Source of the DNA: an uncultured Gammaproteobacteria bacterium
Lineage (GTDB): Bacteria > Patescibacteriota > Microgenomatia > Levybacterales > UBA12049
Direction of reading: 5' to 3'
DNA: 64,000 nt
Assembly (NCBI GenBank): GCA_964512695.1
Contig: CAZEJU010000006.1
Location: forward strand, 2,591 to 66,590
Part shown: piece after piece, positions 3,217 through 49,858 of the stretch
Layout of the letters: each line of letters opens with the position of its first letter
How positions within the stretch are numbered: the first letter of the stretch is position 1
Made by a program: the position numbers and the translations under genes
The notes under the pieces: model-generated
Seen by the model: the letters and a program-made list of their open reading frames with translations, nothing else
Told to the model about the DNA's origin: nothing
The model's database searches: none

Positions 3217-4137
3217 ATGAAAGTATTAGCTACAAAAGGGTGGGATGAATATGAGCTTATCGATTCAGGAGAAGGGTGTCGTTTAGAACGATTCGGTAAC
3301 TATAGACTATCTCGCCCTGATCCTGAGGCTATTTGGCGAAAAAAACTACCTCATACTGAATGGGAAAAAGCAGATGCTTCTTTTAGAAAAGAAGTTGATG
3401 GGAAAGAAAAGTGGATTCAAAAGCATTCTTTACCCGACCGATGGAAGATGAGGTATAAAGAACTTGCTTTTTGGGCAGAGTTATCACCTTTTAAACATAC
3501 TGGAGTTTTCCCGGAACAGATAGTGCAGTGGGAGTGGATGGAGGAGAAAATTAAAAATCTCCCCCAAGAGGACTTGCTACAAAGCAGCGGCGAAAAGTCA
3601 AAAATCAAAAGTAATGAGAACACATTAAATATTCTTAACTTGTTCGCATACACTGGGATTGCAAGTTTAGTTTGCGCAAACGCAGGTGCGAAAGTTACCC
3701 ATGTAGATGCATCAAAACCCACTATTGGCTGGGCAAGAGAGAATCAAAAGTTATCAGGACTTGAAAAAAAACCAATACGCTGGATACTTGATGATGCTAT
3801 TAGATTTACTCAGAGAGAAATACGACGGGGAGTGCGTTATGACGGTATTATTATGGACCCACCTGTCTATGGACACGGCCCTCAAGGAGAAAAATGGGAT
3901 TTTAAAACGTCGTTTCCAATCTTGTTAGATTTGTGCAAGCAAGTATTATCCAGTGATCCATTGTTTATACTTATAAACGCATATGCAATTTCGTCCTCTG
4001 CTCTTATGTTAGAAAATGTATTAAAGGATATTACAAATGGGTTAGAAGGGACTATTGAAGTAGGGGAGTTAGCTCTGGAAGAAAAAGGATCAGGCCGGTT
4101 ATTATCTACAGGAATTTTCGGAAGATGGTCAAAATAA
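3217..4137 (+). CDS. Class I SAM-dependent (rRNA) methyltransferase, RlmI/YccW-like catalytic domain
   Basis: SAM-binding motif LNLFAYTGIASLVCANAGAKVTHVDAS and catalytic region GVRYDGIIMDPPVYGHG (DPP[FY]), as in RlmI/RlmK-type 5-methylcytosine methyltransferases. Confidence 0.65.
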   Translation: MKVLATKGWDEYELIDSGEGCRLERFGNYRLSRPDPEAIWRKKLPHTEWEKADASFRKEVDGKEKWIQKHSLPDRWKMRYKELAFWAELSPFKHTGVFPEQIVQWEWMEEKIKNLPQEDLLQSSGEKSKIKSNENTLNILNLFAYTGIASLVCANAGAKVTHVDASKPTIGWARENQKLSGLEKKPIRWILDDAIRFTQREIRRGVRYDGIIMDPPVYGHGPQGEKWDFKTSFPILLDLCKQVLSSDPLFILINAYAISSSALMLENVLKDITNGLEGTIEVGELALEEKGSGRLLSTGIFGRWSK

Positions 4138-4388
4138 TATGGTATAGTTTTCCGCAGTTTTTCCGGATATTCAAATATTTCAATCAGTAAGTGAAGTTGT
4201 TAAAAAATAAATGAGTGGTAAGAACTATAAGAGTAAGAACGGAAGTCAATATATGTTACAGTTATAAGTCCGCGGCCAAATTTGAAGACTTCGAAGCTAG
4301 AAAATATCTTGATACTAACTAATGTATCATCAATTATACCATAAAGAAACAGTCTTGTAAATAAAATCCCCTTGCTTATAATTTCTTC

Positions 4389-23834: not shown

Positions 23835-23908
23835 TGGAGCGGGTGAAGGGAATCGAACCCTCGTATCAACTTTGGAAAAGTTGTGTTCTGCCATTGAACT
23901 ACACCCGC
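23835..23908 (-). tRNA. tRNA-Gly (anticodon TCC) with encoded CCA
   Basis: Revcomp GCGGGTGTAGTTCAATGGCAGAACACAACTTTTCCAAAGTTG...GGTTCGATTCCCTTCACCCGCTCCA. The anticodon loop is TTTCCAA. Confidence 0.85.
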
Positions 23909-24260
23909 GAGTACTACGACGAAATTTATTATTATCTACCCACGGCCACTATAGATTACTTTAGGGTTATGCGGTAGTTTATATGTTTAGAATTATAGCA
24001 AAGATGGTGCGGATAGGGGAAGACCCATGAAAAACCCGCCTTGGAAACGCATTTGTTTCAACTGGCGGGTTTATATTTTTCACTATGCCAAATCACATCA
24101 AAAATAGATACATCCGGCGTTTGTTTAAAAGTACAATAAAATTGTAATCCTGAGGTATAAGGATTTTAAACTTTTAAACAAAAAACGCCGGATTATGCAT
24201 GTATATTTCTCCCATGGGAGACGTGAGCCGGGAACTAGAAGCCCGGCTCACATACTCACG

Positions 24261-24359
24261 CTAGCGGAGCAGACCTCCCCACGCCGCTAGGAGAATGACG
24301 ATTACCGCCAGGACTGCGGTAATCGTGACGAAGAACTTAGGTGGGATATCTTGCTTCAA
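24261..24359 (-). CDS. 32-aa single-TM peptide (TTG start), translationally coupled downstream of the GC-rich gene; not in track
   Basis: RBS AAAGGAGG directly follows the TAG stop of the upstream gene, then a 6-nt spacer and TTG. It encodes LKQDIPPKFFVTITAVLAVIVILLAAWGGLLR. GC-rich codon usage matches the islet. It is followed by the GAGCCGGG/CCCGGCTC hairpin. Confidence 0.35.
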   Translation of the reverse strand: MKQDIPPKFFVTITAVLAVIVILLAAWGGLLR

Positions 24360-24379
24360 ACCATTCCTCCTTTTGTCTG

Positions 24380-25537
24380 CTACTCGCAGCCAGGGCTAAG
24401 CAGCAATCTGTCCCACCACGAGCAATCCGTGCGTTTAGGTTGCTCGCGAGTAGTGTAGATCTTGTATAGTCGGTAAACCGTATAGGTCACACCGGCTATG
24501 ACAACGATTCCAACTGCAGTTGCCGTAAGCCCTACTGCGTTTGCAGCAACAGCGGCCACTACATAGTGACCGGCATTTGTTACAAGGGTCTTTCCGATGG
24601 GTACCGCGATACGCACGGCCACGTACGTACCCGCGGTCAAACCGACAGCCGTAGCAGCCCCAACCTCAAACTCCTTTCCTTCAACATTCGTACCCAGTTT
24701 TTGGCCTATGTACAGGCCAAGTTCTTCTAGGGTAGAACGGGCATTTTTGTTAGCTGCATCGACGGCTTCTGTGCCACCACCCTGGGATCTGTAGTAGTCC
24801 GCAGGGTCGGGATACCTTTCCACTCCACTGAGTTCCGAGTGTGCGTGAAACCAAGGTAAGCTTCCCGGTCTATCGCACCTCATCCATCCCATTCTCGTTG
24901 CCTGCACAATTACTACCCCATCTCGCTTGTGGGTAGCTGTTATGCAACCAGTAGGAGGTTTGGGACTTTCAGGGGAATATCTGGGTGGCGCAAACCTCTG
25001 ACCACTGATGGAATCACCCATCAGTTTGCCTGTTACGTTATCGTAACAATTTCCTCTGTTCGGGTATTCTCCTTGAGGACACACCTCCCTGCAGTATCCC
25101 GTGCCTGATATGCTGGAACACTGGCGAAGGTGATAGGTATTAGGATCCCATCCCCACACTCCTCCGTTGGGGTGTGGGCTACCCACACTTGGTTGAGTGT
25201 TTGTAGTCGGACCTGTAGCTCGCAACCCACTCGTGGGTGGAGCTATATTTCCGGTACAATCCACACAAGGCCAGTCACGACCTTGGTCGTGTACCCAACT
25301 GTTCGTGCGACCTGTCGGGTCACAGACTACGTGCTGCTGGTACTTACCAGCCCGTGTAGTCTGGCCGTTGGGGACTATTTGACCACCTAGACTACTCGCA
25401 GAGCAGCCAGGCTGTCTTTGAACAGCTGGAGCTGCTTCAGTCAGACGAGGAAGTAATAGCAGGGGTTGAACGGCCAATATGCAGGCGATACATAGACTGA
25501 TAAGCCTAAATCGCCATTGTGTCGACTTGGTGAACAT
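24380..25537 (-). CDS. Cys-rich secreted/membrane-anchored protein of unknown function (GC-rich foreign-looking gene)
   Basis: Probable start is the ATG at 25537 (MFTKSTQWRFRLISLCIACILAV..., signal peptide) with RBS AAAGGAGGG; the track start at 25573 is a GTG. There are about 20 Cys in the mature part. The C-terminus has Ala/Val/Gly-rich TM helices (VGLTATAVGIVVIAGVTYTVYRLY). Confidence 0.5.
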   Translation of the reverse strand: MFTKSTQWRFRLISLCIACILAVQPLLLLPRLTEAAPAVQRQPGCSASSLGGQIVPNGQTTRAGKYQQHVVCDPTGRTNSWVHDQGRDWPCVDCTGNIAPPTSGLRATGPTTNTQPSVGSPHPNGGVWGWDPNTYHLRQCSSISGTGYCREVCPQGEYPNRGNCYDNVTGKLMGDSISGQRFAPPRYSPESPKPPTGCITATHKRDGVVIVQATRMGWMRCDRPGSLPWFHAHSELSGVERYPDPADYYRSQGGGTEAVDAANKNARSTLEELGLYIGQKLGTNVEGKEFEVGAATAVGLTAGTYVAVRIAVPIGKTLVTNAGHYVVAAVAANAVGLTATAVGIVVIAGVTYTVYRLYKIYTTREQPKRTDCSWWDRLLLSPGCE

Positions 25538-25565
25538 CGTCCCTCCTTTAGCGGGAGTATTTTTT

Positions 25566-25619
25566 GAGAACACCGCATATAAAGTGAATTTAGTATTTCA
25601 CCTTATACACGGCGTTCTC
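25566..25619. promoter_or_regulatory. 54-bp imperfect palindrome immediately upstream of the RBS of the GC-rich gene (candidate operator)
   Basis: GAGAACACCGCATATAAAGTGAA tttagtat TTCACCTTATACACGGCGTTCTC; 19 of 23 arm positions are complementary. Confidence 0.4.
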
Positions 25620-25743
25620 TTTTCATGCATGATTTGTCAAAGTTCTAAATACAGAATAATCTTAAGAATATATTATACTACTATGAATTAATAATTTATG
25701 TGATTTGTTATAATGAACGCTGGTTAATTATTTATCTATTTTT

Positions 25744-26697
25744 ATGAGGAAATCGAAAAAGAAACTCTTCCGAAGAGGAACAGAACAAAAATATCCTAAA
25801 ATAAAGCATATATACGCACAAACTAAAAAACCAAGGCGGATTCGGAAAGTAACATCTGCTTCACAACCTCATTTTCGCCCTGTGATTAGTATGCCATTTT
25901 TGTTTTTTTCGCTTCTACTTCTTGCAATAGCATCAGTGACTTTTATCCTTTACCAAATGAGAGTAACATTTGTACTTCCTTCTGTTGAAATACCCAAGAT
26001 CTCTTTTTTTATACCGAAGGTTACTCTTCCTACTATAACTTTCCCAGAAATCTCTACACCTAATGTAGAATTTACATTGCCTGCATTACCTGATTTCAGT
26101 CATAGTATTACTACCATTCGAGATTCTCTTTGGACAGTAGCAAATTTTACTATTCATGGTATACAAAGTATCTGGAATGCGAGCATTACATTTATAGTTC
26201 GCGCGTTACGCTACTTCGATCCTCGTCCGTTATTAATAACTATCTATTACGGAATTTTTACCAGTATTCCATATCTCGTTACCTATTCTATAAAATTTTT
26301 GGGGATGATAGATCCACTGCCCCTTTTTCGTATAACCTTAGAATTTGAAATATCCTTCCTGTATATACTTGGTATGTTACTTATAGAACTTCTACAACTA
26401 ACATATGCCGGACTTATTATACTTTTTGAAATTACCTTGGCAGTGAGTCAAGCGATATTTGTTTTTTTAAACTCAGTATATAATGCATTAAAATCGGTTG
26501 TGTATAGTATATATTTGCCATTAAGCAAATTTTTTAGTGTATTGTATGGTTATACATCCCACGGGATAAAAACAATAGTTGAGTATGTAATGTTTTTTGT
26601 TATGATTGTAATAAATGCTATAGAGCCTTCTATAGAACTATTTAAATTTACCTTTAAGAATGCTGGTGAGTTTATGAAAGCAGTAAGTGGTTCGTAA
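25744..26697 (+). CDS. Hypothetical polytopic membrane protein with a Lys/Arg-rich N-terminus
   Basis: Basic N-terminus (MRKSKKKLFRRGTEQKYPKIKH...KKPRRIRK), then multiple TM helices. No known motif. Confidence 0.4.
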   Translation: MRKSKKKLFRRGTEQKYPKIKHIYAQTKKPRRIRKVTSASQPHFRPVISMPFLFFSLLLLAIASVTFILYQMRVTFVLPSVEIPKISFFIPKVTLPTITFPEISTPNVEFTLPALPDFSHSITTIRDSLWTVANFTIHGIQSIWNASITFIVRALRYFDPRPLLITIYYGIFTSIPYLVTYSIKFLGMIDPLPLFRITLEFEISFLYILGMLLIELLQLTYAGLIILFEITLAVSQAIFVFLNSVYNALKSVVYSIYLPLSKFFSVLYGYTSHGIKTIVEYVMFFVMIVINAIEPSIELFKFTFKNAGEFMKAVSGS

Positions 26698-26712
26698 TTT
26701 AGTGTATGTTTA

Positions 26713-27738
26713 TTACTGTATTTTTTCTATAAAGCTTCTATGAACTTCTGGTAGATCAAGCGATAAAGCTTCCTCTTTCGTTACCCATCTATATTCGGTA
26801 TGCTCCCAACTTAGTTGTACGTCTTCAGTAATAGTTTTGGCTATAAATCCAATCATTACAATAAAGTCTTGGTTTACTTTTGTTATGGGAAAAGTTTGGA
26901 TATGAATAGGACGTACATCAGTTACACGTAATCCTGTTTCTTCCTTCACTTCTCTGTTTATAGCATCAGTAGGGTTTTCTCCAAATTCAATTGCTCCACC
27001 TGGAAAATCCCACCCTCCAGCTCTATCAATTTTATTGGAACGTTTAAGGATAAGAATCTTCCCGTCTGGATTTAGTATCACAGCCTTACCACCAATTTTT
27101 GCAAATACTTCCGGTTCGCTATATCCATCAATAAACGTAGCTTCTGGAAACAGCCGAACTATCCCATGCTTATCCTTACCTGAGAGATAACCATGATATT
27201 GCTCAAGTTTCGGTAATTTAATTCCCATATCTAACGGTGAGAACAGGATATTCGTTTGATATTTTTTGGCGAAAATTCTTTGTTTATACGAACATTTTTC
27301 AATATCTCCCGATATGATAATGAACGGTTTATCTTCTACCTGTTCATAGACTTTTTCTTCAAAAACTTCAATGTTTTTTATTAATATCACACGTTCATTT
27401 ATATCCGGTAGTGACTGGACTGTATACACAAAGCTTTCGTGGTCACCACTTTCAATGAAGATGATTTGTTTTTTATCGGCATCATGTGGAAGTTGAGAGT
27501 TTTTAATGATCAGAGGAGCAGTCATATTTGTAAGTTCTAGAAAGGTATCTCGCGCCATGTGATAAGCACTGAAGAATAGTACTTTTACACTATGACGATA
27601 CATATCAGCGAGAAGATTTACCGTAAAATAAGAAGCACCAGACTTATCAACTCCATGGATAAGGCAGGGTAGATCTGAAAGCCGAATCTGAAGTTTAGAT
27701 TTATCCAGGAGAAGCGTATTCATGAATAGATTATACAT
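26713..27738 (-). CDS. Two-domain protein: N-terminal uncharacterised domain (about 190 aa, degenerate P-loop-like) fused to a C-terminal NUDIX hydrolase
   Basis: C-terminal Nudix box GGAIEFGENPTDAINREVKEETGLRV. The N-terminal domain has GVDKSGASYF (Walker-A-like but non-canonical) and IIFIESGD (Walker-B-like). Confidence 0.55.
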   Translation of the reverse strand: MYNLFMNTLLLDKSKLQIRLSDLPCLIHGVDKSGASYFTVNLLADMYRHSVKVLFFSAYHMARDTFLELTNMTAPLIIKNSQLPHDADKKQIIFIESGDHESFVYTVQSLPDINERVILIKNIEVFEEKVYEQVEDKPFIIISGDIEKCSYKQRIFAKKYQTNILFSPLDMGIKLPKLEQYHGYLSGKDKHGIVRLFPEATFIDGYSEPEVFAKIGGKAVILNPDGKILILKRSNKIDRAGGWDFPGGAIEFGENPTDAINREVKEETGLRVTDVRPIHIQTFPITKVNQDFIVMIGFIAKTITEDVQLSWEHTEYRWVTKEEALSLDLPEVHRSFIEKIQ

Positions 27739-27830
27739 GACGTTTATTTATAAAAGAAATCCAGTTATATAAGAAGGAAGAATTTTTAAGAATTATTTGT
27801 ATAAGCTAGATTGAAATTATTTATGGAAGA

Positions 27831-28475
27831 TTATAGACCAACTGAGTTCGCACCATATTCCGCTTGTTCCTGTGTAAATTTCTCATAGACCAATTGCTGA
27901 ATCAACCCATCTCGGGAAAATCCTTGCAAATCCATATAAGATTTTGCTTTTTGTGCAGCTTCTTCATTCCAGTTAGCCCCTGAATGGTCAGCTCCATATT
28001 CAGCATCAGCTCGAGAGAATTGTTCATACTCTAGTTGTGCTACAAGTCCATCTCGGGAAAATCCAGAGTAACTTATATAAGATTTTGCTTTTCTGACAGC
28101 ATTCTTTTGACTTACTGTTTCACCAGCAGATTGTTTGTTTTGAGTAGGTGTATTTGTTGCTTTTATAGGAGCAACCGTAGCTTGTTGGTTGGATTGTATA
28201 GTTGGCTCAAGCTGGGTGGTGGGTTGATTTTCTTAAGATACTGTTGGTGTAGGATTTTGTGATGCTGTATTAGTGGTAGTCGATTCAGGAGAAGACGCAA
28301 CCATATAAACAAAGAATGCAAATACTGCTGTAACTATCCATTTGGCTGTTTTATTCCACGTAGCGTGCTTCCACATCAGATAAAGACCTACCGGAAAAAA
28401 GAGTAGAAGAAAAAGAATAATACCGCCTGTAGTTTGATACCATTTCTTAGTTTCCATTTTCCGGATTATAAACAA
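27831..28475 (-). pseudogene. Ltp-family (phage TP-J34 Ltp-like superinfection-exclusion) membrane protein gene interrupted by an in-frame TAA
   Basis: The track ORF 28233..28475 (two TM helices plus a Ser/Thr linker) ends with TAA at 28233-28235. The same frame continues without any start codon for 133 codons. That downstream part encodes two Ltp repeats (KAKSYISYSGFSRDGLVAQLEYEQFSRADAEYGADHSGANWNEEA and KAKSYMDLQGFSRDGLIQQLVYEKFTQEQAEYGANSV) before TAA at 27831-27833. Confidence 0.55.
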
Positions 28476-28619
28476 TTTTCACAATAAATACAATAAATGG
28501 TAATTTTTTCAGTAAATGAGGCGGAAAAGTGCCTAAATTAGACAGATTTGTCCAGCAGATACCATAAGAGATTTGCAGTTTTGAAGAGATTTACTCATTT
28601 ATAGAGATAAGTTATCTAG

Positions 28620-28693
28620 TCGGGGACAGAGGACTTGAACCTCCGACCTCACGGTCCCAAACCGCGCGCTCTAGCCAACTGAGCTAGTCCCCG
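28620..28693 (-). tRNA. tRNA-Pro (anticodon TGG)
   Basis: Revcomp CGGGGACTAGCTCAGTTGGCTAGAGCGCGCGGTTTGGGACCGTG...GGTTCAAGTCCTCTGTCCCCGA. The anticodon loop is TTTGGGA. Confidence 0.8.
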
Positions 28694-28697
28694 AGAG

Positions 28698-28781
28698 TAC
28701 CGCGAGAGAGAGTCGAACTCTCATGTCCTTTACGGACGAGGGCTCTTAAGGCCCTTGTGTCTACCATTCCACCACCGCGGC
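28698..28781 (-). tRNA. tRNA-Leu (anticodon TAA), type II with a long variable arm
   Basis: Revcomp GCCGCGGTGGTGGAATGGTAGACACAAGGGCCTTAAGAGCCCT + variable arm CGTCCGTAAAGGACAT + GAGAGTTCGACTCTCTCTCGCGGTA. Confidence 0.8.
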
Positions 28782-28953
28782 GTGTAATGCGTTTACAGAA
28801 CAAAACGCATACATAATTGTACTCGAATTGTGTCTTTTATTCAACCGAAGTTCCTACAGTAGCCGATAAACGCCAGCTTACCTGCTCGAATACATCCAAA
28901 GCTTCATGGGTTAATGAGCGTAGTTAAAAAGATAAGCAGTATCGACCTTAAGT

Positions 28954-29919
28954 TTATAAAAGTGATTGTGGAGGTTCTTTGCCTAATACTTTTAATGAAT
29001 AGTTAAGAAGTTGTTTCATTTCTTCTCTACGGTTAGGACTATTGAGTAAAACGCCTATTAATTTTACTCCATCTTTTTCATAGTATGTTACTAAACACAT
29101 GCCAGCTTCGGGGGTAAAACCAGTTTTTACACCTTTAACTCCTGGATAGGAAGAAATAAGATTCGTTTCATTTGTAAGCTCGAATGCCTTATGTGTAGCA
29201 TTTGCTGGAATAGTGTATTGATACGTTGACACGACTGTTTTAAACAAAGGAAAGTTTTCTAATGCGTATTTCGTCATTACTAGCAGATCGTATGATGTAG
29301 TATACTGTTCACCATCTCCCTGGAGACCTGAAGGGTTTGAAAATCGGGTATTATAAAGACCGAGAACTCTCGCTTTATTATGCATAGCCGCTATAAACTC
29401 ATACCGCCCTGCTATGAAATTATGTGCGAAGACTTCCGCTGCGTCATTACCAGAATTAAGCATCAGTCCATAGAGAAGTTCTTCTTTATTTACTATCTCT
29501 CCTGCTTCTAGACCCATACTGTCTTCACCGACGAGATCTTCTTCATGTACCGTATACACTTCAGGCATTCCTTTATCTTCAAGTGCGATAATAGCTGTCA
29601 TTATTTTCGTTAAAGATGCCATAGGTAGTTTTTCTTTAGGATTTTTTTCAAATAGTACTTTATTATTAGTGAGATCATAGACCAACGCAGACTTTGCTTG
29701 GATTTCTGGGACATCATTAGTAGCTGCTAATATTTCCCCAATAGGTTCCCAAACATCCAGAAGCGTTACTTGTTTATTATTCTCAACTGATAAAAAATCA
29801 GGTAGAGGAGACATAAAAGCAGCTGGTAATTCTTCGAAAGGGCGGTATATATAAAAAATAAGAAACGAAGCTATACCGAGAAGCAACACTGTCATCGAAT
29901 ATGCAAACCAGAATCTCAT
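28954..29919 (-). CDS. dacA: D-alanyl-D-alanine carboxypeptidase (PBP5/6-type, peptidase S11)
   Basis: SxxK (ASLTK), SGN (LNSGNDAAE) and KTG (KGVKTGFT) motifs are present, with an N-terminal membrane/signal segment. Confidence 0.8.
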   Translation of the reverse strand: MRFWFAYSMTVLLLGIASFLIFYIYRPFEELPAAFMSPLPDFLSVENNKQVTLLDVWEPIGEILAATNDVPEIQAKSALVYDLTNNKVLFEKNPKEKLPMASLTKIMTAIIALEDKGMPEVYTVHEEDLVGEDSMGLEAGEIVNKEELLYGLMLNSGNDAAEVFAHNFIAGRYEFIAAMHNKARVLGLYNTRFSNPSGLQGDGEQYTTSYDLLVMTKYALENFPLFKTVVSTYQYTIPANATHKAFELTNETNLISSYPGVKGVKTGFTPEAGMCLVTYYEKDGVKLIGVLLNSPNRREEMKQLLNYSLKVLGKEPPQSLL

Positions 29920-29968
29920 ACAGTAGTATCATAACAAATAAGTATATGATGAGTGCTATACTACATAT

Positions 29969-30796
29969 ATGTTGAGCTTAAAAGTACTATCTCTTAATAT
30001 CATGGGTATTCCTTTTAACGCAGATAATATATGGGGAACGCTTTTCAATTCGTCACTTCCTTTACGACATAATAAAACAGCCCAGGCAATTTCGGCACTT
30101 GACCCTGATATTATTTGTTTACAAGAAGTTTTGACATATTATCAAATCCGTATCTTTAAAAAGCTTTTACCAAGCCATCCGTATACTTCGTTTCAGAATT
30201 CAGTTATAGGTCCGAAAGGAGGATTAGTGGTTTTTTCTAAGTTACCTCTTATAAAGCAAGGCTTTGTCGAATTTAAAAAAAATGGAACTTTTAGGAATAA
30301 ATCATTTATTTGGAAGTTATTAAAAAATGGCATATTGATTACAAAACTCGTCAATCATCCTGTTATTCTACTGAATACGCATTTAACAGCGAATTTTGAC
30401 TGGGATTGGAGTTTGAGTAATCGATTTGTTCCTTACCTTACTTCACAATTACAACAAATGAAGCGAACTCTAGAAGTATATAGTGATAAAAATATTGTTC
30501 TATCAGTTGGAGATTTTAATATGGACAGGAATACAGAGATCTATAAAAATTTTTTAAAAGAAAATGCAGTGACTGATATTTTCGCTGACGTAGATTATAC
30601 TTCGATGCATGAGTTCTACGCTCAGCCCGGAAAAGAACCTCCCATTACTGACTACATATTTCTTTCGAAAGAAAGATATCGTGTGAGTGTTAAAGAAAAA
30701 AATGTAGTATTTAAAGATAAGGTAACTGAAGGAAAAAAAGAGTTTTATTTATCAGACCATACAGGACTCTTTGTTACAGTCGAATGTAATTTATGA
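29969..30796 (+). CDS. Endonuclease/exonuclease/phosphatase (EEP) family protein
   Basis: N-terminal DIICLQEV and C-terminal LSDHTGLFV catalytic motifs. Confidence 0.65.
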   Translation: MLSLKVLSLNIMGIPFNADNIWGTLFNSSLPLRHNKTAQAISALDPDIICLQEVLTYYQIRIFKKLLPSHPYTSFQNSVIGPKGGLVVFSKLPLIKQGFVEFKKNGTFRNKSFIWKLLKNGILITKLVNHPVILLNTHLTANFDWDWSLSNRFVPYLTSQLQQMKRTLEVYSDKNIVLSVGDFNMDRNTEIYKNFLKENAVTDIFADVDYTSMHEFYAQPGKEPPITDYIFLSKERYRVSVKEKNVVFKDKVTEGKKEFYLSDHTGLFVTVECNL

Positions 30797-31566
30797 CGAT
30801 AATCCAAACAGTCATTCTAGCAATTATTGAAGGTATTACGGAATTTCTTCCGGTATCTTCGACTGGTCATCTTACGTTAACAGCACATGCTTTAGGTATC
30901 GAACAGACTTCCTTCGTTAAAAGTTTTGAGATTTTTATTCAACTAGGTGCTATTTTAGCAATTGTTTTCCTTTATTGGAAAACATTACTTCAGAAAAAGG
31001 AAATTTGGTTGCGTATAATTTGCGCCTTTATTCCTACAGGTATTCTCGGTTTAATTTTATATAAGGTAATTAAGACATATTTGATAGGGAACGAGTGGGT
31101 AACCATAGTCTCACTTTTTATAGGAGGTGTACTTCTGATTCTTATTGAGCTTAAACATAAAAAGAAGGTTTTTAAAAACCAAGAAATTACAGATATATCC
31201 TATAAACAAGCTTTTTTTATAGGTGTATTTCAATCTGTTTCTATGATTCCAGGAGTCTCCCGAGCAGCTGCAACTATACTAGGAGGACAATTATTAGGAG
31301 CTTCCAGGAAAACAGCAGTAGAGTTTTCATTTCTCTTAGCTCTACCGACTATGACAGCTGCTACAGTCTTAGATTTAAAAGAAAGTATGTTATCGTTTAC
31401 TGCTGATGAATTTTTTCTTCTGGGTCTAGGTTTTATGGTTTCGTGCGTAGTAGCTATTATAACTGTAAAATTTTTCTTAAATTTGATAAAAACGAACACG
31501 TTTATACCTTTCGGAATCTATAGAATTTTTATAGCTGTTCTTTACTGGTTTATTATGCTTCGTTAA
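30793..31566 (+). CDS. uppP: Undecaprenyl-diphosphate phosphatase
   Basis: BacA/UppP signature IEGITEFLPVSSTGHL and a second PGxSRSGxT-like region IPGVSRAAATILGG. It overlaps the upstream gene by 4 nt. Confidence 0.9.
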   Translation: MTIIQTVILAIIEGITEFLPVSSTGHLTLTAHALGIEQTSFVKSFEIFIQLGAILAIVFLYWKTLLQKKEIWLRIICAFIPTGILGLILYKVIKTYLIGNEWVTIVSLFIGGVLLILIELKHKKKVFKNQEITDISYKQAFFIGVFQSVSMIPGVSRAAATILGGQLLGASRKTAVEFSFLLALPTMTAATVLDLKESMLSFTADEFFLLGLGFMVSCVVAIITVKFFLNLIKTNTFIPFGIYRIFIAVLYWFIMLR

Positions 31567-31792
31567 GTTTGTGAAAATATTTATATCTTCATTTTAGGCC
31601 GTAAAATCAATCTAAACTGGGTTAGCAAATTCAGTTAAAGTGTGAAAAGTTTTTTGACCACTTTAGTATATAGTTTGCATCTTTTAATCATATTGACGAG
31701 TTTGTATGAAGCAGTTAGTATGTTATCTAATCACAGTGTATATATAAAAGTATTACTCAGTTATATCTGCCCAGTAACAGAGTAGTATAAAT

Positions 31793-32055
31793 CATCCGAT
31801 CTACGGGATGGAAAGTTTTTTTTCGCAATATTTTATGATGTTTTTTTCGTGGTTAAAAGGATGTTATAAAACTTGTATGAAAGCAATTGTTTCACCAGTT
31901 TCTCTGGGAAATTTCAGCGGTCCTATAAGTTCAGAAGTGATTTTCTAAGTTATACAAATTTTATTATGATTTTCTGCCCAAAAAATCAAAGAAACTACTG
32001 TATTTATAAAACATTACCTTTCATATCCGAATAGTACGGTATGGAAGGTTTTTTT
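31793..32055. repeat. Pair of about 31-nt direct repeats (hairpin + T-run) in the 530-bp leader of the sipW operon
   Basis: CATCCGATCTACGGGATGGAAAGTTTTTTTT at 31793-31823 and CATATCCGAATAGTACGGTATGGAAGGTTTTTTT at 32022-32055. Confidence 0.4.
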
Positions 32056-32098
32056 GTAGTTAGGGATGATTTTACAAAAAGAAGGGGGGTGAAAAAAA

Positions 32099-32671
32099 AT
32101 GATAAATAGAAGAATCGCAATAAGTAGTATGTCTATTCTCGCAGCGCTGTCTCTTATGACTGGCGCAACCTTCGCGTACTTTTCAAGCTCTGCAACAAGT
32201 ACTAACAATACTTTTTCTTCGGGAACGTTGGTGTTAGCACTTACTGACACTACTGAAACAGATATGGCAGCAGTTCAGGCATCATTTGGAGCTACTAACA
32301 TGGCACCTGGGACATGTACTGGAGATCAAGTTTTAACATTAGATAATATCGGAACAGTAGTTGCAAATCATTTAGAAATAGCTGCATCTAATACAGATAG
32401 TGCAATGGCTGGTAAATTAAGAATTAAAAAATTTATGTTTGACGGAACTGACTTACTAAACGGAATAATAGGCACTACGGCCGGTGATCCAGCGTTGAAA
32501 GATCTTAGCGATCTTGCGACAGCAGGATATGATGATATCGGTATGTCCGATCTCAATGACCATACTATAACAATGGATGTTTGTCTAGATGAATCAGCAC
32601 CTGATAGTTTACAAGGGTCAACAAACACTTTGAATTTAACGTTTGCCCTTAATCAACATGTTAGTCAGTAG
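32099..32671 (+). CDS. SipW-cognate secreted protein, TasA/camelysin-like
   Basis: Strong RBS AAGGGGGGTGA. The N-terminus has a hydrophobic core ending TGATFAYFSSSATSTNNTF, the SipW-type cognate signal motif (AYFSD-like). Located upstream of sipW. Confidence 0.6.
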   Translation: MINRRIAISSMSILAALSLMTGATFAYFSSSATSTNNTFSSGTLVLALTDTTETDMAAVQASFGATNMAPGTCTGDQVLTLDNIGTVVANHLEIAASNTDSAMAGKLRIKKFMFDGTDLLNGIIGTTAGDPALKDLSDLATAGYDDIGMSDLNDHTITMDVCLDESAPDSLQGSTNTLNLTFALNQHVSQ

Positions 32672-42154: not shown

Positions 42155-44359
42155 TTAACTGTGAACCTTTGTATTATATATGATAGGCCTATAATTTTCA
42201 ACTAAACGTGCAGCGTATACTGGTAAATAGCTACCAAATGTAGCTAAAATAGATCTAGATCTATTATAAATAGTTAAAACTTCTCTTTTAACATCGTCTG
42301 TTAGACCGACTAAATATCTTTCACTGCGGGCATACTGCTCATGTCTTAAAGACACCATTGCAAGAAGCTGAATTGTGTAATAGATTGATAGACGGATAAA
42401 GGCCTCTTTATCACGATTCGTGAGTTTTCTTTCTTTAATAAGCACTTTAATGCCTTCTATACCTATTTTTCCATACCAAAATCTGGCAATATAAGCCAAG
42501 TCGGTATTTTTTTCCGCTAAAACCATAATTTCAGAATCTAGGATACTTATGTTTTTTTTATCGATCAGTATATTTTTTTCATGTAAATCACGATGTGAGA
42601 CAACATACTCTTTTTTTATAAAAAGCGATGAAAAAATTAATTTATAGAATTCAATACTGTTAGTGAATATTGCGTGCGCCAGCGAAGGTTTTTTTATAAA
42701 AGCTAAAAGTGCATATAAAGGAAATGTATATGCCATACTATTTGACTTTCTTACCGCTAATATTTTTTTATCATCATCACTTAATTTCTTGTTTAAAATT
42801 GTAAGTCCTTTTAAACAGGCTGATAAAACTGATATCTGCGTTTTGGTGGGTTGTGTTGTAAGCATCTTACCTTCTCTATACTCCGATAAAAGTGAAAGTT
42901 CATTTGCTGATGTATGAAAGCCGATTACTTTAGGAAAATTGATTGTATACTGCTGAACTCGAATTTTATGTATTTTTTTTAACATTGATAATATTCGCCA
43001 TACGTTATATGTTTGTATGTACTCTAATGTTTTTCCTTGATAGGGTATTTGCCGAATGATAACTTTTTCTTTAGCATCATTCATATATAATCTGGTTCTA
43101 TGCACTAAATTTGATGAGGGAGATTTTAGTTCTTTTAAAAAACTAAATCCACTTACTGGAGAATAGGTAACTTTTTTATGGAGTTTTTTATAAAAGAAGG
43201 ATAACAACTTACCGTTTAGCGAATCAAGTAAGGCAAAATTGTCATTTACATTATCTTTTTTGTTATTTTCAACAATTCCGTGAAAGAATGTTAAGTATTG
43301 TTCTGTAATGCTATCCCAAGAATACCTTTTAGCAACTTTCTTATATGCCGCAATATTTGCTTTTAGTTTTCCTTTCTCTGCGGTTTTTAACAATATTTTT
43401 GCATACTCATTAAAGTTAAAAGGAACAGCTTTTTCTATGCCTGTATTTCTCGTCCACTCAAGGCCTTTTATATTAAAACTTACCACAGGAACTCCGCTTG
43501 CTAACGCTTCGAGTGTAAATAATGAAAAACCTTCATATCGTGATGGTAAAGCTACAACAGCAGCATGTTTAAGAAGCGAACGCTTCTTATTATCATATGC
43601 AGGGCCTACTAAAGAGACTTTCCCTTCTAGACCTAACTGATGGATCATATCTTCTATACGTTTTTTATCTGGTCCATGTCCTGCTATAACTAGCGGATAC
43701 ATAGTCTTACTGGAAATTTTTTTGTACGCATGAAGTAATATATCTATACCTTTCTGGCTTATGTCTAATCTTCCTAAAAATAATATGTACTTTCTCTTTG
43801 CAGGTTGATTTGTAAAATATTCATCGCCTACTCCTTCATGAATTACTGTAGTTTTAGTATGAGAGTTTAGTTCAGTTATTTTTTTAGCAGCAGAGTTTGT
43901 GCTTGCAATAAAATATTTGTAGAGTCGTGACCCATATTTCTCAACTTTATCGAAGGGTAAATGGTAAATATTGGCAAATCTATTTGCTTCAAAAGATGTA
44001 GATTTTCCAACTACTGGAATTCTTGTAAAGAGAGGAGAACATAGTGTCGAGATGGGTGCAGTAAAACACTCGATGATAATGTCAGCCTGAAGTCTTCTGA
44101 CAATAAAGGGCAGCGAAAAGATATACGCAATGTTATTCAATCTGATATTTTTTGTTCCAACTCCTATATGTCTATAATAAATTCCTTTCTCAAACCTATC
44201 TTTATATCCTGGATATCGAGAACTGATAACGGTGACTTTATGTCCTTTCTTTATCATTCGCGATGCCACTTCATATGTAGAACGTGCTTGCCCAGCACCT
44301 AAAAAAGGATTTTTAATATCATCAAAGTCAAGAAAAATTATATGTAATGATTCTTTCAT
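42155..44359 (-). CDS. Bifunctional GT4 glycosyltransferase / APH-ChoK-like kinase fusion protein
   Basis: The N-terminal half is GT4: the C-terminal subdomain has EGFSLFTLEALASGVPVV (EX7E). The C-terminal half has a kinase-like catalytic loop VVSHRDLHEKNILI (HxDxxxxN) and a DSE (DFG-like) motif. Confidence 0.55.
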   Translation of the reverse strand: MKESLHIIFLDFDDIKNPFLGAGQARSTYEVASRMIKKGHKVTVISSRYPGYKDRFEKGIYYRHIGVGTKNIRLNNIAYIFSLPFIVRRLQADIIIECFTAPISTLCSPLFTRIPVVGKSTSFEANRFANIYHLPFDKVEKYGSRLYKYFIASTNSAAKKITELNSHTKTTVIHEGVGDEYFTNQPAKRKYILFLGRLDISQKGIDILLHAYKKISSKTMYPLVIAGHGPDKKRIEDMIHQLGLEGKVSLVGPAYDNKKRSLLKHAAVVALPSRYEGFSLFTLEALASGVPVVSFNIKGLEWTRNTGIEKAVPFNFNEYAKILLKTAEKGKLKANIAAYKKVAKRYSWDSITEQYLTFFHGIVENNKKDNVNDNFALLDSLNGKLLSFFYKKLHKKVTYSPVSGFSFLKELKSPSSNLVHRTRLYMNDAKEKVIIRQIPYQGKTLEYIQTYNVWRILSMLKKIHKIRVQQYTINFPKVIGFHTSANELSLLSEYREGKMLTTQPTKTQISVLSACLKGLTILNKKLSDDDKKILAVRKSNSMAYTFPLYALLAFIKKPSLAHAIFTNSIEFYKLIFSSLFIKKEYVVSHRDLHEKNILIDKKNISILDSEIMVLAEKNTDLAYIARFWYGKIGIEGIKVLIKERKLTNRDKEAFIRLSIYYTIQLLAMVSLRHEQYARSERYLVGLTDDVKREVLTIYNRSRSILATFGSYLPVYAARLVENYRPIIYNTKVHS

Positions 44360-47300
44360 ATATTTATAGTTTCCTCTTGAGCTAGAAATATATCTCCGTA
44401 TCGTGGGAAATCCGCCTGTTTCGGTAGTACACCTTGTATAATCGAATCAAGAGCTTCTGCACTTTTCTCCCATGTAAATCTTTTAGACCAAACAGTAGAC
44501 TTAGTGGACAACTTCTGTAATAGTTTTTTATCTTCTATGGTTACCAGCATTGCAGTACAGAACGCTTCAACGTTTCCACACTCAATAAGAAGACCCGTTT
44601 CCTTATCGACAACTGAATCTTTTAGTCCATTAACGCGCGATGCAATAACCGGCGTTCCGCTAGAATTAGCTTCGATAACTGTTATACCCCATCCTTCAAC
44701 TTGTGAAGGCTGTATCATAACCCAACTTTCCGCTAGTAATTGTGCTTTAAGGTCGTTAGATACTTTTCCGTAAAATATAACATTTCTTTCTATTTTTAGC
44801 TGTTGTGCTAATTGTTGTAAAGAATGAAGACTTTCACCTTCACCAACAATTCTAAGTACCGCAGTTTTATGGGTACGCAGAACTTTCGCAAATGCTTTAA
44901 TTGCAATATCAATATTTTTATGTGGTTTTAAACGACCTAAATAAATGAATGATGGATACCTCGTTTTTTTTCTCGGTTTAAATACTGTTGCATCAATTCC
45001 GTTGTAAACAATTTCAATATTTTCTGGGTGGGAAAAACCCAGATCTATAATAGACTTTTTAGAAGATTCAGAAACTGTTATCACAGGTTTATTTCTATAT
45101 GCATACGGCATAAGTTTCGATTCCATGATTGCTACAAGCTTCGCAACAGGATAGATGAGATATTTCCTAAACACTTCTTGATGAACATGATGAATTATTA
45201 AGAAAATAGGTTTACGAACGTAGAAGGGGGAAAAAAATGGAATGCCGTTCTCACAGTCTATGACAACATCCGTCTTTTTTCTTAAAAAGAAAACATAGTA
45301 TATAACTGCCCAAATATATACAGTATAAGCTCCTCCTCGTCGGATAATACGAACTCCATCAATAATTTCGTTTCTAGGAGACTTCTTATCATTTCCACAA
45401 AATACTGTTACATCTTTTCCTTGAGTCACCCACCTTTTTGCGATTTCATGTATATATACTTCAGCGCCTCCTGACCATTTATGTCTTGTATCTCGCCAGT
45501 TTAAGAATAGAATAGCCTGTTTCTTATCAGTATTATCTTCGGTAACAATCTGATTTTCTTTACTAATAAGTGCTCCTAAAGCTTTTTCAAATGCAATAAC
45601 AGTTTTGTTATTTCTGTGGAGAAATAACATAACAAGTAAATGAAATTGCCCAAGTGCTGCCATCGTATATACAAAATCTAAAAGAGTGGCATGTCTGAAT
45701 GTAATCAGTGTTATTTGTACGAATGATAACAACACCACAGTAGCGGGGAATGTATATATATTTTTAGCCAAATAATAAGAGACAATAGTTTTAGAGATGG
45801 TAAAACAGAACATACCGAAAGAGAATGCAAATACATAGGGTAGTATATAGGATGCTTTTTCGCCAAATAATAGGGGTAACGAAATGCTTCCAAGAATCCC
45901 GAAAGCAATAAATCCAATCCCGCTCACTACGCCAGTACTAATCACTGAGTAATAAAAGAGAAGCTCTGTATTTTTATTTTTTCCTTCTAACTTACTAACA
46001 AATGGAATTACAAATTGAGTTGTTAGACCACCTAAGAAGAAAATCATCTTTCCACATAAAGAAAGTAATGCATATTTTCCTGCTTCTTCCGGGGCTAAGA
46101 AATGATTCGCAAGTAAGATATCAACACTCATGAACGTAACATTGGCAATACTTGCTAATATAGAAGCTGAAAAAAACTTACTTGGAAATGCTAAAGCTTC
46201 GGTGGAAACAGTACTTTTTATAAGTTTTATAAAACGAGGTATAAAAAATGCCGAAGAAACATATGCTAATACGAATGCTAAAGGTATAGCTATATATACA
46301 TAATTCTCATATCCAGAATAAATTAAAATTACACTTAAAATTACTTTATAGAAAGGTTCGATAAGAATTGCGCCAGCTAAGTTAATAAATAGTAACTTAC
46401 CAGATAGATAGCCTCTATCCACTGAAAACCTAAAACCAACGAGCCAAACTAAAGAAAAGAACACAAATGGAAGTATGGACTGTGTTTTAAAAAGCGACTG
46501 TAATGTCGGAGATATTATTAACCAAACTGTTGCACTTACAAGCGAAACTAGAACAACTTGATTTCTCATGAAGCCCCAGAAGGCAGCTGCAGTTTGTTTG
46601 TTATATCGACTTTCAGACAGTGCAGTTTTATGACTTATAGCTGCTTGTAAAGAAGAAAAGGGAACACTTGCAAGATATGCTAAGCTTGCGACAAGACTTA
46701 TAATACTAATTGTCTCTAATGAAATAGTAGGTATTCTATAAATTATAATGTTATAAACTAAATTCATTATATGTGCGCCTGTAACTGCCATCATTAAGAT
46801 TGAGCTTGTAATAATGTTTCTTTTATATGGCGTAAGCATTTTTATTACATTAGAAAGTATGTTAAATTGGAGAGAAAAAGATTTTCTTACAGGCTTAACT
46901 ATTGGTGTCTCGACTTCTATCTGAATAGCAGGAATAATCGCTTTCTTTTTCTTTTGTAGATGCAATCCGTGAATTGTTTTCTCCCAGTAATGAGGTTTAA
47001 AGATAAGCTGGTATAATGCAACCCATCCTGCAATACTTACCATTAACCAATATATAGGTATAAAAAGAGCTGAGTAAATTAAGTCCCACTGTTTTCTCTT
47101 CGCACATCCGATCATGTAGTAATATAAAAAGAGGAAATTACCAAATACGAGAGAGATTGCGCCCAGGTAAAAAGCAGGAGCTATATAAACGAGTTCTAAA
47201 GTTGGTCCGACAATAGAATATAAAGCAAAATAGGAAATAGTAGCAAGCCACAAGAAAGGATTGAGGAAAATAAACGTTAATTTACTTCCGATTGTCAATT

Positions 47301-49113
47301 GAAAAAGAAATGCATGGATTCCTTTACTCTTTCCAAATGACCAGATATCTCGCATGTGGACAAGATAAGACTGAAGGTAACCTTTTATCCACCGTGAACG
47401 CTGACGAATCCAGTTACGAGGGTTACTGTTAGCTTCTTCTAATGTTACTGAATCAATAATGGCTGTTTTATATCCTTCTTTAAATAACCGAATACCTAAA
47501 TCAGCATCTTCTGTAACGTTAAATGTATCCCATCCTTGCAGTTTTCTCAGGTATGATGTTCTAAAATGATTACTTGTTCCACCAAGAGGAATATTCGTAT
47601 TAATTGATTGTAATCCTGGTAATATGAGGTCAAACCATAAAGAGTATTCTGCAGAGAAGAATTTCGTTAACCAGTTCTGATGAGGATTATAATAATTAAG
47701 TTTTGCCTGTAAACAGATGGTTTTTTCAGATTGTTTTAAAAATCCAATATATGCTTTTTTAAGTTGTAATGGATCTGGTATATCTTCTGCGTCATAAATA
47801 ACTATATATTCACCCTTCGCAATGTTTAGACCATAGTTACAAGCCTTTGGCTTAGTCTTTGGTTGCGACAAAGGGACTATTACGGGTCTAACAAAAAATG
47901 GTAGCCTCATTTTCTTTATTTCCGCAATTGTGTCGGTATCGTCCTCTTCAAGCAATAAAATAACATCCAGTTTACGCTTCGGCCATTCTAATTTTTCAAT
48001 TGCATTTAAAAACTGTGGGAGAATTGCTGCTTCTTTATATAAAGGGCAGAGAATTGAATAAATGGGTAATTCATCATCCGGGATGAGATTAACCTCACGA
48101 TCATCAATATTTATCTCAGGATTATTCCGTAAGCTTCGCATGATAACGTATAGATTGAAGAGAACATCAATAAAATAAACTACGCTTATAATGGTGATAG
48201 CAGTTCTAGCAGTAGTTAATGGCCACAAAAAACTACTTGTCACGAAGAAAGCTATAAGAAGGAAAATAATAAAAAGCTGAGATCGTACGAATGTCTGTAA
48301 AGCTGTTTTGTGATAGGGGAGGCTCGTGTGGGTAATATATCTATTTTTCTTATACCCAATGCCAGCACCGATCATAGAATCTTTTCTCATAGCTGGAATA
48401 CTGATGGGTTTCATGCGCGTAAGTTTAACGAGTAACGCATTTGAACCTATTTCCAACACTTGTTTTAAGTAATGAACTTTAGAAGATCCATTTTCCCTCG
48501 GAGCAAATGCTATATCATAATTAACAATTTTATACCCGGCTTCTCTTGCTCTATAGAGAAACTCTAAATCAAATGTCCATGGAGAACGTGGAATTGCTCT
48601 TAAAGCTAAAAATACATCTTTTCTGAAAACTTTTAGACCTGATTGAACATCAGTACGTAATCCGAAAAGTGCTGTTCCAAAAAGCGATCGAAAGCCTCTA
48701 CTTAATACTCTCCGTAACTTGGATGCCTGAAACTTCTTTCTGTTTGCTACGACGATATCACCTTTCTCAAGCATGTGAATCATACCTGGAATTGCCGATG
48801 GGGGATATTGTAAATCACCATCAATCATAACCAGAACATCACCGTGGGCTTTATGAAACCCTTCAAGAAGAGAATATGATTTACCAGGTTTGCCTAGTTT
48901 TTTATAAACAAAAACCTGTGGTGATGTTTTAGATTGTTTATTTAAATATTCAAAAGTGCCGTCTGTAGACATATCATCCATATAAACAAGTTCAAACGGC
49001 ACACGCATTGCTTTTAACTCTGCCAGCAGAAGCTTGTTCAGGGTTTTTACATTGCCAATTTCGTTGAAAACAGGAATAATGACGCTTATTTTTTTGAAAT
49101 TATTTTTTTTCAT
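44356..49113 (-). CDS. 1585-aa multidomain polysaccharide synthase: GT2 + processive GT2 (QxxRW) + polytopic membrane (flippase/MOP-like?) + GT4
   Basis: aa 1-230 is GT2 (SVIIPVFNE...DDMSTDGT...VMIDGDLQYPP). aa 340-600 is a second GT2 (YDAEDIPDPLQL, QRSRWIKGY). aa 600-1150 has more than 12 TM helices (AGKYALLSL region). The C-terminus is GT4 (FLNWRDTRHKWSGGAEVY...VEGWGITVIEANSSGTPVIAS). Confidence 0.65.
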   Translation of the reverse strand: MKKNNFKKISVIIPVFNEIGNVKTLNKLLLAELKAMRVPFELVYMDDMSTDGTFEYLNKQSKTSPQVFVYKKLGKPGKSYSLLEGFHKAHGDVLVMIDGDLQYPPSAIPGMIHMLEKGDIVVANRKKFQASKLRRVLSRGFRSLFGTALFGLRTDVQSGLKVFRKDVFLALRAIPRSPWTFDLEFLYRAREAGYKIVNYDIAFAPRENGSSKVHYLKQVLEIGSNALLVKLTRMKPISIPAMRKDSMIGAGIGYKKNRYITHTSLPYHKTALQTFVRSQLFIIFLLIAFFVTSSFLWPLTTARTAITIISVVYFIDVLFNLYVIMRSLRNNPEINIDDREVNLIPDDELPIYSILCPLYKEAAILPQFLNAIEKLEWPKRKLDVILLLEEDDTDTIAEIKKMRLPFFVRPVIVPLSQPKTKPKACNYGLNIAKGEYIVIYDAEDIPDPLQLKKAYIGFLKQSEKTICLQAKLNYYNPHQNWLTKFFSAEYSLWFDLILPGLQSINTNIPLGGTSNHFRTSYLRKLQGWDTFNVTEDADLGIRLFKEGYKTAIIDSVTLEEANSNPRNWIRQRSRWIKGYLQSYLVHMRDIWSFGKSKGIHAFLFQLTIGSKLTFIFLNPFLWLATISYFALYSIVGPTLELVYIAPAFYLGAISLVFGNFLFLYYYMIGCAKRKQWDLIYSALFIPIYWLMVSIAGWVALYQLIFKPHYWEKTIHGLHLQKKKKAIIPAIQIEVETPIVKPVRKSFSLQFNILSNVIKMLTPYKRNIITSSILMMAVTGAHIMNLVYNIIIYRIPTISLETISIISLVASLAYLASVPFSSLQAAISHKTALSESRYNKQTAAAFWGFMRNQVVLVSLVSATVWLIISPTLQSLFKTQSILPFVFFSLVWLVGFRFSVDRGYLSGKLLFINLAGAILIEPFYKVILSVILIYSGYENYVYIAIPLAFVLAYVSSAFFIPRFIKLIKSTVSTEALAFPSKFFSASILASIANVTFMSVDILLANHFLAPEEAGKYALLSLCGKMIFFLGGLTTQFVIPFVSKLEGKNKNTELLFYYSVISTGVVSGIGFIAFGILGSISLPLLFGEKASYILPYVFAFSFGMFCFTISKTIVSYYLAKNIYTFPATVVLLSFVQITLITFRHATLLDFVYTMAALGQFHLLVMLFLHRNNKTVIAFEKALGALISKENQIVTEDNTDKKQAILFLNWRDTRHKWSGGAEVYIHEIAKRWVTQGKDVTVFCGNDKKSPRNEIIDGVRIIRRGGAYTVYIWAVIYYVFFLRKKTDVVIDCENGIPFFSPFYVRKPIFLIIHHVHQEVFRKYLIYPVAKLVAIMESKLMPYAYRNKPVITVSESSKKSIIDLGFSHPENIEIVYNGIDATVFKPRKKTRYPSFIYLGRLKPHKNIDIAIKAFAKVLRTHKTAVLRIVGEGESLHSLQQLAQQLKIERNVIFYGKVSNDLKAQLLAESWVMIQPSQVEGWGITVIEANSSGTPVIASRVNGLKDSVVDKETGLLIECGNVEAFCTAMLVTIEDKKLLQKLSTKSTVWSKRFTWEKSAEALDSIIQGVLPKQADFPRYGDIFLAQEETINI

Positions 49114-49116
49114 AAT

Positions 49117-49332
49117 TTATGAATTTGAATATAAATTCGAATGGTTTTTTCTAACTTTATGTTCGCGGATAAACTTTTCTAAGGAAGATTTCTGAATACG
49201 GTAATGACCACCAAATTCGATGGCTTCGAGTTTATGTTCTTTAATATACTTATATACTGTAAGAACACTTAATTTGAGGAATTGTGAGACTTCCTGCACC
49301 GTATACAATATTTCGCTTTCTATATTGTTCAT
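49117..49332 (-). CDS. Excisionase/Xis-family HTH DNA-binding protein (MerR-like HTH_17)
   Basis: YTVQEVSQFLKLSVLTVYKYIKEHKLEAIEFGGHYRI matches the excisionase-family HTH signature. Its stop is 3 nt before the start of the giant GT gene. Confidence 0.6.
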   Translation of the reverse strand: MNNIESEILYTVQEVSQFLKLSVLTVYKYIKEHKLEAIEFGGHYRIQKSSLEKFIREHKVRKNHSNLYSNS

Positions 49333-49858
49333 AAAAGTACCGGGCAGGTATTCTATTCATGCTACTTTACACAAAAAACACATCCTATAGAAGATGAGTT
49401 TAAGATTTCTTTATATAGCATATATAGGCTTATACTGTCAAGCTTTAACTATAATTTGGTTATAGTAAGTTATACTAACTTAACTATTCTATTAGTTATT
49501 TATACTCTTTTCTGTACGTAAACTTACAAATTGATACAGTGTTACTTATTGACAAGATAAGATTATTTTCTCACTATATATGTATACGAATTTTTTAATT
49601 TAAATACTTCGAATTAATGCTAAGTTAATTTTTATAAATGTGAACATATGAGGAATGTTCTCATTCGAATAGATTCGTACAAGAGGGGGTGATGATATGG
49701 CAGTAAATAAAAAAACACAAAAAGCTCAACCTAAGAAGATACACCATAAAGTTGCAAATCATTTGGAGAAACCCGTTAGTACATTATTCGGATATACGAT
49801 CATACTTATGTTCTTAGTTGCAACGCTTGTAATTCTCGCAACCTATTTTTAGTTGAAT

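Follow-up and report, generated by a model that had tools for sequence, protein, structure and literature searches.

The window, the 64,000-nucleotide stretch of DNA analysed here, carries on its minus strand a reading frame that runs from TTG 28475 (or ATG 28457) to TAA 27831-27833 and holds exactly one internal stop, TAA 28233-28235. ATG 28457 is more plausibly the start than TTG 28475. Read across the stop, the broken gene has a fused length of 208 codons from the ATG (214 aa from the TTG). Its proximal ORF (28236..28457, minus strand) is still translatable from ATG 28457 and encodes a 74-aa anchor stub (80 aa from TTG 28475), which consists of a two-helix hydrophobic module and the first ~14 residues of a linker. 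Two membrane helices are predicted in the stub, at 28365..28430 (minus strand, ~residues 10-31) and 28296..28352 (minus strand, ~residues 36-54), by transfer of helices 11-32 and 37-55 from an AlphaFold2 model of P0001, the closest intact homologue.

The premature stop (28233..28235, minus strand) is codon 75 counted from the ATG and takes the place of a Gln codon (CAA/CAG) of the orthologues. The distal 133 codons (27834..28232, minus strand), untranslated now, comprise the remaining disordered, T/Q/P-rich linker and an Ltp domain of two repeats. Repeat 1 (27978..28112, minus strand, ~residues 116-160) is a three-helix unit delimited by Pfam family PF07553, by PDB entry 4eqq and by the internal repeat alignment, and repeat 2 (27846..27974, minus strand, ~residues 162-204) is the best PF07553 stretch and is likewise covered by the 4eqq alignment. 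The original terminal stop (27831..27833, minus strand) follows, and all orthologues share the same ...VGL end before it. Downstream of the internal TAA, the first in-frame ATG, GTG or TTG is Met175 in fused numbering, and a restart there leaves just a 34-aa ORF (27831-27935). The gene is thus no intact, uninterrupted ORF, having an in-frame TAA and no restart codon for its distal part.

Two tRNA genes lie outside the gene, tRNA-Pro(UGG) at 28619-28693 and tRNA-Leu(UAA) at 28697-28781, both on the minus strand; the pair is found 143 bp upstream of the broken gene, on the same strand. An earlier note had described this feature as a split Ltp-family gene of the superinfection-exclusion type, with a single in-frame TAA, both halves in the same frame, a distal half without a start codon, and an adjoining tRNA-Pro/Leu pair. 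That description is accurate in every point.

The TAA change makes a palindrome, TCTTAAGA (28228-28239), which contains the hexamer CTTAAG; the ancestral form would be TCTCAAGA. The same hexamer is found in a palindromic context at 25660-25667 (25659-25671), and the recurrence is probably a coincidence.

Ltp domain, spacer and membrane anchor

The distal part matches PF07553 (Lipoprotein_Ltp) in two stretches, with E=1.9e-28 and 98.8 bits against a cut-off of 23.2. This clear match answers the profile check that the earlier note had proposed for the C-terminal part. The note's reading as an Ltp-family gene, with two repeats behind a membrane anchor and linker, is supported. By sequence, the distal part is also similar to Ltp of phage TP-J34, whose crystal structure is PDB 4eqq (E=5.7e-14), and it matches the 'superinfection exclusion' profile of PHROG 4980 (E=3e-38); no PADLOC model matched the window Ltp protein. 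In the AlphaFold2 model of P0001, which was run on a 35-sequence alignment, the two N-terminal helices are followed by a disordered stretch at 57-117 (pLDDT <50) and by a six-helix domain (pLDDT >90). The modelled domain superposes on 4eqq with a TM-score of 0.86 and an rmsd of 1.9 A, at 35% identity.

Members of the Ltp family are recognised by two HTH-like repeats, an acidic pI and an N-terminal anchor (PMC5137146). The window gene encodes the tandem repeat pair of PF07553, and its Ltp domain is acidic (pI 4.89), as is expected of the family. The N-terminal anchor and the low-complexity spacer (13 T, 9 Q, 7 S, and 7 P among the 58 residues of the linker) are present as well, although the stop severs anchor from domain in this copy. 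Sequence, fold, acidity and architecture all mark the gene as a member of the Ltp (PF07553) family.

It falls outside two narrower classes, 'lipoprotein' and 'prophage lysogeny-module gene'. There is no Cys in all 208 codons, and the closest relatives likewise have none. The lipobox L-x-x-C, with the N-terminal Cys that defines an Ltp lipoprotein in the strict sense, is therefore absent, and the window protein is not a lipoprotein. The lipoprotein character that the earlier note ascribed to Ltp proteins in general does not hold here, where the anchor is formed by the two-helix hydrophobic module.

This N-terminal module has the consensus KKWYQKTGxIIALLILFFPVGLYLMWK..W.K..KW, with an invariant LFFPxGL..MW motif in helix 1, and its conservation is well above that of a generic membrane helix. 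A Pfam search of the anchor stub matched no family convincingly. With the 74-aa window product as query, an exhaustive phmmer run gave 1308 representative clusters that bear the module at E<=1e-3; 156 of them reach E<=1e-10. Module-bearing proteins have 50-508 aa, and just 4 of the best 150 listed are shorter than 100 aa. In a sample of 92 module proteins, the partners include DUF4236 (seven proteins), Ltp repeats (four), DUF4352 (three), zinc ribbons and others, and most of the 92 are without any Pfam domain. Viral contigs repeat the same pattern of the module fused to varied domains; module proteins were followed at loci L101-L117 and as P0144-P0292, and were frequently on viral contigs. In other relatives the Ltp pair stands behind a different two-helix N-terminus or a single TM helix, and in a relative from a Clostridia MAG (L065) behind a classical lipobox.

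The anchor is an exchangeable, widespread and shuffled membrane-tether module. Since every family member has some tether, severing it from the domain should abolish function. The C-terminal Ltp domain would lie outside the membrane, as judged from the known surface location of the family; this topology is less certain because the same module also follows a probably cytoplasmic DUF4236 domain in some proteins. With at least 1308 representative clusters, several fusion partners and no Pfam match, the module may merit a family description. To the eye it resembles small membrane domains of the PLDc_N type.

The premature stop

Joining the two halves as one query yielded 1007 homologues, and those of the window subfamily are all metagenome-derived. 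The best ~60 are single intact ORFs of 200-217 aa that cover 98-100% of the query, at identities of up to 77%. The stop falls in a Thr/Gln/Pro-rich stretch of variable sequence. Here the nearest relatives have ...PTV(S/T)-Q-E..., their Gln being encoded by CAA in L004 and L007 and by CAG in L001 and L011. The Gln codon of the orthologues indicates that the window stop arose by a single C>T nonsense change, CAA to TAA, on the coding strand, which is G>A at plus-strand position 28235. No internal stop was seen in the ~30 relatives inspected, all of which bear some N-terminal anchor. The comparison with orthologues that the earlier note had suggested thus gave one intact ORF in the relatives, with Gln where the window has TAA.

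The distal part is undamaged, with no frameshift and with every family-invariant residue kept. Its Ltp domain has a dN/dS of 0.04-0.13 against six relatives, as compared with 0.05-0.10 between intact pairs, values of limited power as dS is saturated. This freedom from decay indicates that the break is very recent, or is an unfixed strain variant, or is a base-call error. The broken Ltp gene is also the sole clearly nonsense-split gene in the window; other adjacent long segments in the same frame, checked against Pfam, belong to unrelated families or have no match, and none looks split.

Independent evidence on the contig comes from a Logan assembly of the same population (run SRR11524805). A Logan contig differs from window 1659-4337 by one mismatch in 2.7 kb. 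Another (L120) corresponds to window 28754-32190 and is 100% identical over 3.4 kb, which argues that the window contig is accurate near the gene; it breaks off within tRNA-Leu and misses the gene by 280 bp. The Logan copy of a gene for a 317-aa membrane protein (window 25744-26697), 1.1 kb away, differs by two residues, which points to strain microdiversity in this run. Exact-protein look-ups gave no entry for the 80-aa piece, the 34-aa piece or two neighbouring proteins, and in JGI metagenome contigs an exact-pattern scan for the sequence at the stop, its variable base set to N, was likewise negative.

The stop is probably a real nonsense allele that has been fixed or has reached a high frequency, and three other accounts have to be set against this. 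Among them, the one with most in its favour, though distinctly less probable, is that the stop is unfixed, being a base-call or consensus error or the allele of a minority strain, and that the main population has an intact, functional 208-aa gene. The flawless distal 133 codons, with a dN/dS as between intact genes, fit this account, as do the sense codon just one base away, the nearby strain variants in the same run, and the 74-aa fragment, which is on record solely from the source NCBI contig. It is opposed by the agreement of the two assemblies beside the gene and by the absence of damage from the rest of the window genes. Exact intact 208- and 214-aa versions are moreover absent from a 15-billion-protein collection that includes the Logan assembly, although that assembly is in fragments and may leave the gene uncovered. 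Dispensable defence genes commonly acquire nonsense mutations, which likewise counts against an error. Recoding or read-through of the TAA, by which the full-length protein would still be made, possibly at a regulated low level, accounts for the shared frame and for the perfect preservation of the distal half. An alternative genetic code is ruled out, however, by normal coding density and by the use of TAA as the main terminator, ending 38 of the 52 long ORFs in the window, three of them in the same TAAG context. All five tRNAs of the window have ordinary anticodons, none being a suppressor, and an Rfam scan of the window found no RNA family beyond these five. With a standard code, no suppressor tRNA, no Rfam element, and no stop at this site in the ~30 relatives, so that it is not a conserved recoding site, programmed read-through is very unlikely. 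The least credible account, to which we give next to no weight, is that there are naturally two genes, one for a small protein of the membrane and one for a soluble protein with the Ltp domain. A few short anchor-only proteins (50-93 aa) among the representative clusters would agree with it. Those below 100 aa among the best 150 module proteins listed may be fragments, however; the distal part has no start codon, and an Ltp domain without anchor or signal would presumably remain cytoplasmic. Close homologues are all single ORFs, and orthologues with two separate genes, by which the earlier note would have judged its reading mistaken, were not seen. That note had left the choice between a recent pseudogene, a sequencing error and read-through; the pseudogene is favoured, an error keeps a lesser probability, and read-through is without support.

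Genomic setting and the tRNA pair

Among named matches of the Obg protein encoded in the window, the best are from Candidatus Levybacteria (65-68% identity). The closest genomic relatives of the Ltp protein are all from Patescibacteria MAGs, several of them mislabelled as Gammaproteobacteria. The broken gene is flanked by genes for a NUDIX fusion, an S11 DD-carboxypeptidase, an EEP-family protein, UppP/BacA, an AI-2E transporter and methyltransferases, and farther away by those for glycosyltransferases, an amylase, Obg and dTDP-sugar enzymes.

Several neighbouring genes have features of their own. The NUDIX fusion (26713-27738, minus strand), just downstream of the Ltp gene, joins an unannotated domain of ~200 aa to a C-terminal NUDIX domain. 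Its N-terminal domain also occurs as a stand-alone protein of ~198 aa (P0122, P0123; 41-42% identity), and its NUDIX part is similar to PDC-S07, a candidate defence protein of PADLOC (E=2e-23). In the region 42155-49113 (minus strand) there is a 1585-aa multi-domain glycosyltransferase (GT2 + GT2 + GT4), after which come a GT4 protein of 734 aa and three proteins without annotation (426-538 aa); a small HTH_17 gene (49120-49356) precedes the 1585-aa glycosyltransferase in the same frame. A sharp GC-rich island at 24100-25600, between tRNA-Gly (23835-23908) and the next gene, has a GC of 0.51-0.55 vs ~0.35 elsewhere. It contains an ORF (24380-25573, minus strand) for a Cys-rich protein of 397 aa whose N-terminus resembles a signal sequence and whose C-terminal part includes a hydrophobic stretch. 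The island gave no Pfam, PADLOC, PDB-sequence or plasmid match and has no convincing flanking repeats; its appearance is that of foreign DNA or of a chimeric join made in assembly.

The loci of the relatives share no synteny with the window or with one another. Elsewhere the family is mobile, serine integrases or phage packaging genes adjoining ~6 of 25 loci. Large serine recombinases (PHROG 95 integrase) are neighbours in L014, L015 and L018. The closest intact Ltp homologues are on phage-like contigs (L001 1-5800, L004 1-5800, and L011 3600-9700), together with a GP3_package small terminase, an HNH_3 endonuclease, a 699-aa KAP NTPase and an unannotated protein of ~1120 aa; these contigs may be Patescibacteria phages or prophage ends. 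In this general form the phage association drawn in the earlier note is true of the family.

Three other contexts were considered and rejected. A conserved operon partner was sought among the downstream ORFs of 140-156 aa, and all-vs-all BLAST gave pairwise or triple similarity among closely related loci alone. A cell-wall neighbourhood, suggested by the S11 peptidase and UppP here and by YkuD or a PBP in two relatives, is not enriched among 132 neighbours. A defence-island context was likewise discarded, as PADLOC yielded generic NUDIX, methyltransferase and helicase similarities alone.

The earlier note went further and took the tRNA-Pro/Leu pair as a sign of a prophage or integrative-element remnant. 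By this account, which is compatible with the pseudogene state, the gene would be the last remnant of an element inserted beside the two tRNA genes. The mobility of the family and the want of synteny with any relative speak for it, as do the serine recombinases beside some relatives and the terminase subunit, HNH endonuclease or KAP NTPase beside others. IMG/VR viral contigs carry full-length relatives, and a tRNA or tmRNA gene stands just upstream in L012 and L025. These two loci are, however, the only ones of 47 with a tRNA or tmRNA within 500 bp, and with four tRNA loci per ~60 window genes an estimated ~13% of genes (about 1 in 8) would be tRNA-adjacent by chance. A tRNA-targeted element leaves a repeat of the tRNA 3' end as attL/attR and an integrase, and neither is found at the window site. 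The 3' end of tRNA-Pro occurs once in 64 kb with <=3 mismatches allowed, and no att-like or significant direct repeats were detected in 25500-29100, so that the att check proposed in the note came out negative. No integrase, recombinase or phage gene lies within ~10 kb of the broken gene, which is thus not located in a lysogeny module beside an integrase; its neighbours are housekeeping genes. Its GC (0.36-0.39) is near the background of ~0.35. In three other Patescibacteria genomes, too, the intact gene is solitary among housekeeping genes. A remnant is accordingly unlikely, and the tRNA pair beside the broken gene looks coincidental. For a comparison with an empty site no close relative genome was available, the next-best homologue of the flanking NUDIX fusion being 42% identical. 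As the family is mobile and the gene is solitary here, horizontal arrival at some point is plausible, without evidence of a residual element at the site.

Interpretation and comparison with known Ltp systems

On balance, the locus is probably a stand-alone chromosomal gene for a membrane-anchored Ltp surface protein of a Levybacteria-like member of the Patescibacteria (CPR), recently inactivated by a C>T nonsense change. An intact member of the family (200-217 aa) consists of a conserved two-helix anchor, a disordered Thr/Gln/Pro-rich spacer of 50-60 residues, and an acidic six-helix, two-repeat domain. By homology, it would expose the Ltp domain at the outer surface of the cytoplasmic membrane, where the domain would bind a component of the incoming phage (the tape-measure protein in TP-J34) and block DNA injection. 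Superinfection exclusion is thus the putative function of the intact protein, by analogy with the phage system. A single C>T transition would then have turned Gln75 (CAA) into TAA within the spacer, leaving the 74-aa anchor stub as the sole product and removing the exclusion domain. Just the stub can be made because the stop is not followed by a start codon and the distal part lacks an export signal. The inactivation would be very recent, or carried by some strains of the population only, because the remaining gene is undamaged.

A more far-reaching version, which we regard as improbable, is that the TM-anchored Ltp protein of Patescibacteria is a host-owned chromosomal surface module, not a phage moron, and that the nonsense allele is a standing on/off polymorphism of the population. 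Its basis is the solitary position of the gene among housekeeping genes in several genomes and the widespread anchor module without a Pfam family. The polymorphism might then reflect phage exclusion traded off against cost, or a function of the protein in the cell-cell contacts of these episymbionts, and not simple decay.

Taken alone, a recently broken defence-type gene of one uncultured bacterium is of little consequence. It serves as a worked example of Ltp-repeat exclusion proteins that are abundant in Patescibacteria and transmembrane-anchored instead of lipid-anchored, and whose genes are found on phage-like contigs as well as singly in chromosomes. In annotation, both pieces are best entered under a single pseudogene or variant, and not as a small membrane protein and unannotated sequence.

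The closest likeness is to proteins of Patescibacteria MAGs and uncultured phage-like contigs (P0001, P0005, P0018, P0019, and P0048), which have the same full-length architecture at 60-79% identity. Their invariant anchor and repeat residues are identical to those of the window gene, but these proteins are intact, with Gln in place of the window TAA, and their genomic neighbourhoods are all different. Genes annotated 'superinfection exclusion / lipoprotein' in Gordonia and other cultured phages (PHROG 4980, 15667) are matched through the PHROG 4980 profile, and 147 phage records were matched by tblastn, with up to 85% of the query covered. Identity to cultured phages is <=38%, with no close relative among them, and the function there is mostly annotation-based.

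Ltp of TP-J34, a temperate phage of Streptococcus thermophilus, has a lipid anchor, a Ser-rich spacer and a repeat domain, and blocks DNA injection (PMC3952083); its target is the tape-measure protein of the incoming phage (PMC5137146). It shares with the window gene the order of anchor, low-complexity spacer and two tandem three-helix repeats, and the acidic pI. The TP-J34 protein is attached through a lipobox Cys, whereas the window gene encodes the conserved two-helix hydrophobic module, and the spacer is Thr/Gln/Pro-rich here instead of Ser-rich. TP-J34 Ltp is encoded in a prophage lysogeny module, whereas the window gene is chromosomal and solitary, in a Patescibacteria host, and has a premature stop.

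Ltp genes are scattered across bacterial genomes as well as phages (PMC3952083). CbpL of Streptococcus pneumoniae is a chromosomal surface protein with a C-terminal Ltp (PF07553) domain and no lipobox (PMC5137146). Like the window gene, it is chromosomal and combines a PF07553 domain with non-lipid surface attachment; it differs in its single Ltp unit, choline-binding anchor, Excalibur domain and virulence role, as compared with the two repeats and transmembrane anchor of the window gene. As CbpL shows, the presence of an Ltp domain does not by itself imply phage exclusion. Since Ltp domains without a lipobox, as in CbpL, and scattered bacterial Ltp genes have already been described, the window gene is of a known kind, an ordinary and recently inactivated member of its family.
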